Origin: a virus
Lineage: Duplodnaviria > Heunggongvirae > Uroviricota > Caudoviricetes
DNA length: 41,632 nt
Reading direction: 5' to 3' (one strand)
IMG/VR virus record: IMGVR_UViG_2547132279_000012
Coordinates: 1-41,632 of that record
This document shows positions 34,822-37,599 of this stretch, one piece after another; the stretch's first letter is position 1, and every line of letters begins with the position of its first letter. A program made the position numbers and the translations under genes. The notes under the pieces were generated by a model, which saw only the letters and a list, made by a program, of their open reading frames with translations, was not told the DNA's origin and ran no database searches.

Positions 34822-35466
34822 ATGCATCGTATAGACACGAAAACCGCGCAGAAGGATAAGTTCGGCGCGGGTAAGAACGGTTTTACCAGTGGTAACCCCC
34901 AGACTGGCACGCCTGCCACCGATCTGGATGATGACTACTTTGACATGTTGCAGGAAGAACTTTGTAGCGTTGTTGAGGCATCCGGTGCCAGTCTTGAGAA
35001 GGCGCGGCACGACCAGCTGCTTACCGCGCTTCGTGCGCTGCTGTTAAGCCGCAAGAATCCGTTTGGCGATATCAAATCGGATGGCACCGTGAAAACGGCT
35101 CTCGAAAACCTTGGTTTGGGAGAAGCGGCAAAACGAAATGTAGGAACAGGTTCAGGTCAGATACCGGATATGAGTTCTTTTTCTGGCAGCATTGCCAGCA
35201 AGGGATATCAGAAGTTACCGGGAGGATTGATTATCCAATGGGGGGCAGGAGATGCAGGTACGGGTTATGTAGGCTCGACAGGAAATGAGATGAATTTCCC
35301 AATCGCTTTTCCGTCACAATGTTTTCAGGTGGTGACGTCCTACGATAATGGTGGAGGAAAAATTGTTGCCGGGGCAGCAGGGAATATGACCAGGACAGGA
35401 TTTCTTCTACGCTGTGATGCTTCTGGTGGCAATTATAATTTTCGCTGGTTTGCAATAGGGTGCTGA
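34822..35466 (+). CDS. Tail fibre protein (constant N-terminus plus currently expressed variable C-terminus)
   Basis: Gly-rich fibre-like composition; the inversion crossover site lies inside the gene at the LENLGLGE codons. Confidence 0.75.
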
Positions 35467-35467
35467 T

Positions 35468-35911
35468 ATGAGTAATTATTATTTTTCACGGACGACGTTA
35501 GCTTTTTATCCGGTAGATATGCTGGAGCTATATCGCTCATATGACAGCTTACCGGATGATATTACGCCAGTATCTGATGAAATATTTTTGACTTATTCAG
35601 GAACACCACCTGAAGGGAAAGCGCGCGGTGCAAATGATGATGGACAACCTGAGTGGGTTGATATTCCACCAATGACTCCTGAAGAAGCAATACTCCTTGC
35701 CACAGCTCAAAAACAAAATCTTATTGATAATGCCAACGAATATATGAACAGTAAGCAATGGCCTGGCAAAGCAGCTATTGGTCGTCTGAAAGGTGACGAA
35801 CTGGCGCAATATAATTTGTGGCTGGATTACCTGGACGCACTGGAACTGGTCGATACTTCCGGTGCGCCAGATATTGAATGGCCTACGCCTCCGGCAGTTC
35901 AGGCCAGATGA
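35468..35911 (+). CDS. Tail fibre assembly protein (current orientation)
   Basis: 147 aa with conserved Tfa C-terminal pattern (LWLDYLDALELVDTSGAPDIEWP). Confidence 0.8.
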   Translation: MSNYYFSRTTLAFYPVDMLELYRSYDSLPDDITPVSDEIFLTYSGTPPEGKARGANDDGQPEWVDIPPMTPEEAILLATAQKQNLIDNANEYMNSKQWPGKAAIGRLKGDELAQYNLWLDYLDALELVDTSGAPDIEWPTPPAVQAR

Positions 35912-36485
35912 CATCCGGCGCGGTGCTGGTATCTGTTACCGTCACAGCGTCAATGTAATCCAGCACGGCGTTAAGTCGGGTTGTTTCTGCCTGCGTCAAC
36001 TTCCGTCCGGCCTGCAATTTCAGTTGAATCAGACTAATGGAAGCCATTGCAGTATCAATCAGTGACTGACGTTGTGCTTCTGCCGCGTCTACTGCGGCGC
36101 TATGCTGTGCCTCGGTATCCGTCACCCATTTCTCACCATCCCATTTATCGTATGGCGTTAACGGGGCGATAGTGGTTGTTTTTTCGGGGTAATCACCCGG
36201 AGTTGTGATTTCTTTGGCGTCTCCCGTTTCGGTGTTATAGACGATTTCACCGCGATGGTCTGGCACATATTCCCATGAGTTTAAATCCATCGAACGGCAG
36301 ATAGCATAACCCGCCTTATGTGTGCCAGGGGCATCTAAACAGGAATATGCAGGGATACCGACGCCAACAGCAAGATATTCATTTGAAGTGGAAATATATT
36401 CTCGAGTTTCACCATCATAGTTATAGACGGTAATATTCCCTGCTTTGGTGGCGATAATCTCGCTATTTAATATGGCGTTATCCAT
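35883..36485 (-). CDS. Tail fibre assembly protein (alternative, inverted orientation)
   Basis: 200 aa; C-terminus (LNAVLDYIDAVTVTDTSTAPDVIWPELP) parallels the plus-strand Tfa. Confidence 0.8.
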   Translation of the reverse strand: MDNAILNSEIIATKAGNITVYNYDGETREYISTSNEYLAVGVGIPAYSCLDAPGTHKAGYAICRSMDLNSWEYVPDHRGEIVYNTETGDAKEITTPGDYPEKTTTIAPLTPYDKWDGEKWVTDTEAQHSAAVDAAEAQRQSLIDTAMASISLIQLKLQAGRKLTQAETTRLNAVLDYIDAVTVTDTSTAPDVIWPELPEA

Positions 36486-37018
36486 TATGCAGCCCTCACA
36501 ATATAGTTAAATGCAATATTCCTTGGTCGAACCCTAAAACCAGCCCCTGCGCCTGCTCCAATTGGTGGCAATTCGATAGAGGGGTATGCTGTTGCAGGGG
36601 AATATAAACCTTCACGGGAATCATAATCAGTCGTCATATAGTTAGACGTATTATCAGAAACAGTTTCTGTCGGTCTGGTAACCAGACGATAAGAGCCAGT
36701 GGTTGGTGACCTGACCAGACCAAAACTTTCAACCAGAGTGGCTTTTTGAAAGCTTAATAATCCCCGACCACTGTCAGCTCCACGCCCGTCATCCCAGCCA
36801 CGAATAAACTCACCACGTAAATCAGGCAATTTATTTGTCGGATAAGCCTTTGCCAGTTCCGGGTATTCTTCAGCAGAAAAAGCTGCACCGTTGCATTTCA
36901 GCCAGCCTGTCGGCGGAGTGGCTGAAGGCCATGGAACAGGGACACCAACAGGTAATGCCGAACCTTCTCCCAAACCAACGTTTATGAAAATGCAGAAATA
37001 ACGAGCAAATGGCATCAT
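36485..37018 (-). CDS. Alternative tail-fibre variable C-terminal cassette (silent in this orientation)
   Basis: Receptor-binding-type motif (PTGWLKCNGAAFSAEEYPELAKAY); crossover site at its FINVGLGE codons; no own promoter expected. Confidence 0.7.
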   Translation of the reverse strand: MMPFARYFCIFINVGLGEGSALPVGVPVPWPSATPPTGWLKCNGAAFSAEEYPELAKAYPTNKLPDLRGEFIRGWDDGRGADSGRGLLSFQKATLVESFGLVRSPTTGSYRLVTRPTETVSDNTSNYMTTDYDSREGLYSPATAYPSIELPPIGAGAGAGFRVRPRNIAFNYIVRAA

Positions 37019-37044
37019 TCCTGCTTTTGTCAGAGGGATCCACT

Positions 37045-37599
37045 ATGCTTATTGGCTATGTACGCGTATCAACAAATGACCAGAACACCGATCTACAACG
37101 TAATGCGTTGAACTGTGCAGGATGTGAGCTGATGTTTGAAGACAAGATAAGCGGTACAAAGTCCGACAGACCAGGACTGAAAAAGCTGCTCAGGACACTA
37201 TCGGCAGGTGACACGCTGGTGGTCTGGAAACTGGACCGACTGGGGCGCAGTATGCGGCATCTTGTCGTGCTGGTGGAGGAGTTGCGCGAACGAGGCATCA
37301 ACTTTCGTAGTCTGACGGATTCAATTGATACCAGTACCCCAATGGGGCGCTTTTTCTTTCATGTGATGGGTGCCCTGGCTGAAATGGAGCGTGAACTGAT
37401 TGTTGAACGAACAAAAGCTGGACTGGAAGCTGCTCGCGCACAGGGACGAATTGGTGGACGTCGTCCCAAACTTACACCAGAACAATGGGAGCAGGCCGGA
37501 CGATTAATTGCATCAGGCGTTCCTCGCCAGAAGGTGGCGATCATCTATGATGTTGGTATATCGACACTGTATAAGAAGTTTCCGGTCGGAGATAAATGA
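37045..37599 (+). CDS. Serine DNA invertase (Pin/Gin/Hin/Cin family)
   Basis: MLIGYVRVSTNDQNTDLQRNAL... resolvase/invertase N-terminus with catalytic Ser and C-terminal HTH; near-identical by recall to e14 Pin. Confidence 0.9.
   Translation: MLIGYVRVSTNDQNTDLQRNALNCAGCELMFEDKISGTKSDRPGLKKLLRTLSAGDTLVVWKLDRLGRSMRHLVVLVEELRERGINFRSLTDSIDTSTPMGRFFFHVMGALAEMERELIVERTKAGLEAARAQGRIGGRRPKLTPEQWEQAGRLIASGVPRQKVAIIYDVGISTLYKKFPVGDK

Follow-up and report, generated by a model that had tools for sequence, protein, structure and literature searches.

The P region of the Escherichia coli K-12 element e14, first described by Plasterk and van de Putte in 1985 (as cited in PMC4272514), is a DNA-invertase switch whose two orientations coexist in K-12 cultures, as seen by whole-genome sequencing and polymerase chain reaction (PMC4272514). 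The e14 segment is inverted by each of the invertases PinE, PinQ, and PinR and, in K-12, more strongly by PinQ and PinR than by PinE (PMC12529663). Related systems are the G segment of phage Mu (S/U, S'/U', gin), the Cin fiber switch of phage P1, and the Hin/hix system for flagellar phase switching in Salmonella, in which a promoter is inverted and no coding ends are exchanged. PinE reportedly complements both Hin and Gin. The Min fiber switch of p15B has several sites and produces many permutations. The stretch analyzed here (the window) comprises 41,632 nucleotides (nt), positions 1 to 41,632 of the IMG/VR record IMGVR_UViG_2547132279_000012, from a tailed virus of the class Caudoviricetes. 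It carries what is, with high probability, an e14-type P segment, a two-site invertible cassette that is acted upon by a Pin invertase and swaps the receptor-binding C terminus of a short tail fiber.

Both crossover sites of the window are base-for-base identical to those of e14, the left one to the left e14 site and the right one to the pinE-proximal site. The order and strands of the genes are also the same (ymfQ-stfP-tfaP / tfaE-stfE / pinE), and the window is in the orientation of the MG1655 reference. At the protein level, identity is 98.5% for YmfQ, 97% for the constant part of the fiber (StfP), 95.1% for PinE, and 90% for TfaE. By these sequence comparisons, the locus is directly orthologous to the e14 P region, of which it represents a different allele, in agreement with the comparison made in an earlier sequence-only reading of this DNA. 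The variable cassettes are where the two differ: the expressed gp53-like tip is 40.6% identical to the StfP tip and its assembly protein 52.8% identical to TfaP, whereas the silent collar-type tip is 60.1% identical to StfE, with the collar itself identical and the distal part replaced. The segment spans 1868 bp in the window, compared to 1829 bp in e14.

The crossover sites can be observed directly. The top inverted repeat between positions 33500 and 38500 has arms at 35106-35125 and 36964-36983 (20 nt, 95% complementary, with a spacing of 1838 nt). It includes an exact 14-mer, TTGGTTTGGGAGAA/TTCTCCCAAACCAA, that lies on the minus strand at 35111-35124 and on the plus strand at 36965-36978. 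Across the 41.6-kb window, and with up to two mismatches allowed, TTCTCCCAAACCAA is matched just twice, once on each strand; the chance expectation is 0.26 matches, and two or more were obtained in 3 of 100 shuffles. The sequence-only reading had placed inverted sites with a 14-bp core at 35105-35124 and 36965-36984, and its coordinates fall within 1 nt of the recomputed arms. The left and right sites have the inner half-site and the central dinucleotide in common, in the 26-bp format typical of invertase sites (TTCTCCCAAACC-AA-N12, inverted). No additional crossover sites, such as a Min-like multi-inversion system would contain, were found in the window beyond these two. The repeat spans the GLGE codons on either side, namely G98-L-G-E101 of the open reading frame (ORF) for a fiber of 214 amino acids (aa) and the GLGE of the minus-strand ORF at 36485-37018. 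The ORF positions thus match the earlier placement of the sites at the GLGE codons of the fiber gene and of an alternative C terminus encoded on the opposite strand. The exact pin-proximal 26-mer (36965-36990) is present in more than 120 IMG/VR contigs and, in a collection with one genome per species, is limited to E. coli and Shigella.

Both orientations of the segment are likewise directly observed in nature. In strain APEC 102026, which has the same prophage end and an identical Pin protein, the segment is flipped, with breakpoints exactly at the sites. The window as it stands aligns to APEC 102026 in three pieces, of which the middle one (35106-36983) is reversed; after inversion in silico, the two are collinear over 11,800 bp with 99.915% identity and no gaps. 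Opposite orientations of a related segment were also found in the near-clonal pig isolates L008 and L009 (chromosomes of 5,270,553 and 5,270,552 bp, respectively). The flanks of the segment in their related prophage are 100% identical (6215 and 4289 bp), which, with the orientations differing, implies that the inversion events are recent. An IS3-family insertion sequence (IS) element splits ymfQ in these isolates (positions 3988-5908), and their prophage is therefore probably defective; the orientation of the segment differs nevertheless.

In complete E. coli genomes, the junction of the constant part with the collar tip was present in 513 genomes and that of the collar tip with pin in 895, which puts the flipped fraction at ∼36%. 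These counts are approximate, and the ratio rests on collar-based junctions because the query for the gp53-like junction detects only close alleles (12 genomes). The value is close to the published 33% (PMC12529663). Of the 75 IMG/VR loci in which both sites are present, 37 have the collar tip in the expressed position and 23 in the silent one, and identical cassette pairs are found in both orientations (e.g., L096/L097, L013/L081, and L022/L125). The occurrence of a single orientation only, which the sequence-only reading had named as evidence against a switch, is not what was found, as flipped copies exist in APEC 102026, in the L008/L009 pair, and at many IMG/VR loci.

The Pin-like invertase that had been predicted next to the segment is indeed encoded there and is a small serine recombinase. 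Its resolvase domain (PF00239, E = 3.5e-51) covers residues 3 to 135, and its HTH_7 domain (PF02796, E = 3.8e-13) covers residues 138 to 180. The protein matches the Gin structure 3uj3 across residues 1 to 181 (E = 2.7e-95) and is 79.6% identical to Mu Gin. In RefSeq, the identical protein WP_000904961.1, named pinE, is listed for strains 21EVA and APEC 102026. The catalytic residues that were checked are present: S9 (in GYVRVST), R7, and, in the WKLDRLGRS motif, D64, R65, and R68; the crystallized Gin chain has Ala at position 9. The invertase-specific residues described in Hin are the basic K47, R48, and K51 of helix B and Q151, R154, and L155 of helix 1 of the DNA-binding domain (PMC3798978). 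With the numbering offset by our own count, the counterparts of the helix-B residues in Pin are K46, K47, and R50, and a Gln, an Arg, and a Leu residue of Pin align with Q151, R154, and L155 of Hin in the structure 1hcr; in Hin, this patch contacts Fis. Residues that contact Fis and the enhancer in Hin are therefore conserved in Pin, which looks intact and appears to bear the hallmarks of a Fis/enhancer-dependent DNA invertase.

Enhancers of such invertase systems are ∼65 bp long and have a Fis site at each end. A presumptive recombinational enhancer with two Fis-site-like ends lies near the start of pin, within its first 85 nt and at a distance of ∼95 bp from the right crossover site. Of its 64 nt, 51 are shared with the corresponding part of Mu gin, including both ends in full, and the enhancer of Mu has been mapped at the start of gin (Kahmann 1985, as cited in PMC3798978). 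The two ends are also more strongly conserved at synonymous third positions, of which 10 of 11 are identical there, compared to 49 of 121 elsewhere (Fisher P = 0.0024).

The two tips belong to different families. The expressed one (Sv) is a Gp53-like_C domain (PF21882, E = 9e-20) and, in the structure library, resembles the R1-pyocin fiber (6cxb and 6cl5) and the short tail fiber 9zd7. This allele is rare: it was found at ≥96% identity in 3 of 5426 complete genomes and is absent from the 75 IMG/VR loci. The silent tip (Sv') contains the phage tail collar domain. In silico, inversion places the collar tip in frame behind the constant part of ∼97 aa and yields a fiber of 260 aa that is followed by the 200-aa assembly gene. 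The exchange of fiber C termini proposed in the sequence-only reading thus leaves the frame open, and its assignment of one tfa gene to each cassette is borne out by the two Caudo_TAP genes. The inverted-form fiber matches the tip of T4 gp37 (2xgf, E = 5e-16) and also resembles gp12. The same reading had suggested that the shortness of the 214-aa fiber might imply an unusual specificity. This suggestion is rejected as unsupported, since the length is typical of the family (209 aa in e14 StfP and 215 to 216 aa at related loci) and both tips have common receptor-binding folds. The two assembly genes converge tail to tail, with an overlap of 29 nt at 35883-35911. Near the middle of the segment there is also an 18-nt inverted repeat (35821-35838 and 35947-35964, 89% complementary), which is explained by the homology of the C termini of both assembly genes.

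The alternative C terminus had been described as promoterless. A scan for promoters and terminators between 34000 and 38600 found fewer promoter-like sites than in shuffled sequences, and around the silent cassette the minus strand had none; such a result is consistent with a promoterless cassette and is otherwise uninformative. However, a putative ATG-initiated leader ORF precedes the cassette, and its ATGATG start and frame are retained in 118 of the 119 related loci that have the same 26-mer (43 sequence variants). Most of the substitutions in this leader are nonsynonymous, and it overlaps the sequence upstream of pin. The features of the locus are listed in Table 1.

Table 1. Features of the invertible fiber locus (positions are those of the window)
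Feature	Position	Strand	Remarks
Mu-type baseplate genes	upstream of 34822		Baseplate_J and Mu Gp48/YmfQ (Pfam)
Tail-fiber gene, current expressed form, 214 aa	34822-35466	+	constant N-terminal part from 34822 to ∼35112; variable tip Sv, 35125-35466
Left 26-bp crossover site	35099-35124		inside the fiber gene; central TT, 35111-35112; reverse complement, TTCTCCCAAACC-AA-GGTTTTCGAGAG
Invertible segment	35111-36978		1868 bp from central dinucleotide to central dinucleotide; APEC 102026 breakpoints within 35106-35125 and 36964-36983
Tail-fiber assembly gene of the expressed tip, 147 aa	35468-35911	+	Caudo_TAP, E = 4e-29
Tail-fiber assembly gene of the silent tip, 200 aa	35883-36485	-	Caudo_TAP, E = 1.7e-31
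Silent alternative fiber C terminus Sv' (GLGE + 159 aa)	36485-36978	-	phage tail collar domain, PF07484, E = 1.4e-15
Right 26-bp crossover site	36965-36990		TTCTCCCAAACC-AA-CGTTTATGAAAA; central AA, 36977-36978
Short leader ORF (putative), MMPFARYFCIFINVGLGE	36967-37018	-	supplies ATG to the pin-proximal cassette; equivalent to the start of e14 stfE/stfE2
pin, DNA invertase, 184 aa	37045-37599	+	Resolvase and HTH_7 domains
Presumptive recombinational enhancer	37066-37129		two Fis-site-like ends

The switch can be expected to work as follows. Pin dimers would bind both 26-bp sites and, together with Fis bound to the enhancer in the 5' end of pin, form an invertasome. This complex would cut both sites at the central dinucleotide, and a 180-degree rotation would then flip the 1868 bp between them. 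With the segment as it now lies, the late tail operon would read the constant part and the gp53-like tip as the 214-aa fiber, along with the 147-aa assembly protein. After inversion, the constant part would be in frame with the collar-type tip, yielding the 260-aa fiber along with the 200-aa assembly protein. A lysogen population would in this way release particles of two adsorption specificities. In this scheme, the dependence on Fis, the identity of the invertase that acts in vivo, and the change in host range are inferred.

Several points weigh against this scheme. That the source strain itself switches is something we infer from its relatives. No attR was found: a direct repeat of the tRNA-Thr region was sought beyond position 30000, with no exact match of at least 12 nt, which leaves the right boundary of the prophage undefined. 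The putative register of the Fis cores in the enhancer follows that of hin and gin; the two 15-mers are 49 bp apart, compared to 48 bp in hin. Finally, other Pin-family invertases of the same cell could act in trans, so that the adjacent pin need not encode the active enzyme. Carried further, this last point becomes an alternative in which the inversion is driven by PinQ/PinR-type invertases of the host's other prophages and the adjacent pin is dispensable. The superiority of PinQ and PinR over PinE on the e14 segment in K-12 argues for it; however, pin looks intact here and lies in cis with its presumptive enhancer, so this alternative is possible but unlikely, and it would change the enzyme and not the mechanism. 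It is far less credible that the locus is a frozen relic, with repeats and pin persisting in the source strain without recombining and with the orientation differences being old events or choices of assembly. Although many e14-like elements are defective, including e14 itself and the L008/L009 prophage with the IS in ymfQ, the window has the same crossover sites as e14, where they are active in experiments, and Pin retains all the catalytic and Fis-contact residues that were checked. In addition, a prophage end that is 99.9% identical and encodes an identical Pin is flipped, and the orientation differs between near-clonal isolates whose flanks are 100% identical, all of which makes a relic highly improbable.

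The switch could also serve mainly as a phase-variable anti-phage device of the lysogen and not to change the host range. The adsorption block would then come from a 131-aa chimera of the leader and the gp53-like tip, the equivalent of StfE2. In the work of Kirigo et al. (2025), the inverted e14 segment yields StfE2 (the stfE leader joined to the gp53-like tip), which blocks adsorption of T2. The flipped window would give an equivalent chimera, which is an annotated coding sequence in APEC 102026; the leader is kept at nearly all related loci, as noted above, and the neighboring genes are defense genes. However, the T2 effect cannot be transferred to the window because of the low identity of its gp53-like tip to that of e14. 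The substitutions in the leader are mostly nonsynonymous, its conservation could be explained by its overlap with the region upstream of pin, and the scan found no sigma-70-like promoter on the minus strand. The prophage, which looks structurally complete, fits a phage function. A mainly defensive role is therefore unlikely, but the two roles are not mutually exclusive. It is an equally doubtful prospect that flipped lysogens might express the 131-aa chimera as an adsorption block and, with the CMoRE/PD-T4-3 and Mrr-like nucleases described below, have a switchable defense corner; separately, and with as little likelihood, the rare gp53-like tip could recognize a receptor not yet assigned to the fiber family.

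As a presumed host-range switch, the locus has the same layout and working as the Mu G segment, to which it had been compared in the sequence-only reading. The constant N terminus is encoded outside the segment, two facing cassettes each combine a tip with an assembly gene, and the invertase gene adjoins them. Also shared are the 26-bp site format and, at the start of the invertase gene, the stretch with the presumptive enhancer, as are the upstream Mu-like baseplate genes (gp48 is 30% identical). In contrast, the Mu segment is ∼3 kb long and its fibers have ∼500 aa, and the gix half-site is TTATCCAAAACC, compared to TTCTCCCAAACC in the window. When the two fiber forms and the two assembly proteins were compared with Mu S, S', U, and U' by BLASTP, no match reached E < 1e-3. 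Outside this comparison, a marginal match to Mu S (E = 0.02) was seen for the constant N terminus of the fiber only. By the lack of BLASTP matches, the window locus is analogous to the G segment and no copy of it, with fiber and assembly proteins that are not shared. The Min switch differs in its number of sites.

Similar cassettes are found in other phage backgrounds. In P2-like prophages such as Escherichia phage pro483, the region corresponding to 35100-37499 of the window (the segment and most of pin) is ∼87% identical over 58% of the query and is annotated as encoding a tail fiber, two assembly proteins, and a DNA invertase, whereas the constant fiber part and the baseplate come from a different phage family. 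At the left site of the IMG/VR loci, the outer half-site varies with the constant gene (TTCTCGCATACC or TTCTCACATACC, as in L018, L024, and L036). Some loci, L034, L127, and L128 among them, have the pin-proximal outer half-site at either end, an arrangement suggestive of Min-like segments with multiple sites. Across the IMG/VR loci, the tips that come after the common GLGE junction belong to at least eight families. The collar tip with its 200-aa assembly gene (∼35730-36990 of the window) is also carried, with 89 to 92% identity at the nucleotide level, by phages of Klebsiella, Citrobacter, and Salmonella. Its carriers (matches H30 and H35 to H46) include Citrobacter phage Omnitron, Klebsiella phages Kp48xx, and Salmonella phage MET_P1_103_31. 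This distribution indicates that the collar-tip cassette has been exchanged across genera.

The window begins with proA and a tRNA-Thr(CGT) gene, followed by an integrase gene, and so represents an E. coli prophage at proA-thrW. The element looks like a full-length, apparently intact SfV/e14-like myovirus prophage, with ORFs for structural and lysis genes, from terminase to baseplate, that are also present in its relatives. These morphogenetic genes are missing from e14, a deleted element located at icd. K-12 e14 aligns to the window only in 5434-9016, 18981-20718, and 33456-37600; because just these three blocks match, the window resembles an undeleted version of the phage type, and e14 looks like that type after two large deletions (9017-18980 and 20719-33455 of the window). 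The presumed deletions coincide with the scars in e14, the chimeric ymfN and beeE/jayE. The phage genome SKA5 has the same fiber/invertase layout, including the invertase, whereas only an IS-disrupted remnant of it is found in SfIV. The prophage is a mosaic: its 99.9% identity to 21EVA and APEC 102026 is confined to 29833-41632, whereas 1-29832 consists, relative to 21EVA, of blocks that are 90 to 96% identical or unmatched.

Directly after pin, the minus strand at 37660-38433 encodes a full-length CMoRE/PD-T4-3 protein (PADLOC, E = 2.7e-140; PDB entry 9u75, E = 3.7e-172), a family of type IV GIY-YIG nucleases specific for DNA with 5-hydroxymethylcytosine (5hmC) or its glucosylated form (5ghmC) (PMC12923530). 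In e14, the same slot is occupied by mcrA, which encodes another modification-dependent nuclease. A further gene, at 38907-39818 (plus strand), encodes a 303-aa Mrr_cat "restriction endonuclease" that has no PADLOC or PDB match. PADLOC also points to candidate defense families in the early and lysis regions of the prophage, at 13181-14738 (minus strand) and 16430-17341 (plus strand), with matches to PDC-M53A/B (E = 2e-32 and 2e-42) and PDC-S45 (E = 6e-42).

The locus is a textbook, long-known type of DNA-invertase fiber switch whose invertase is already labeled pinE in RefSeq. Its novelty is limited to the cassette alleles and the genomic context, and it matters little beyond correct annotation. 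It has a modest value in that it is a natural relative of the defective e14, probably intact, and shows what e14 has lost. The cassette census illustrates how freely fiber tips are exchanged at the conserved GLGE/crossover junction. In the phage of the window, moreover, it would be feasible to test how the P segment affects host range, which is impossible with e14 itself.

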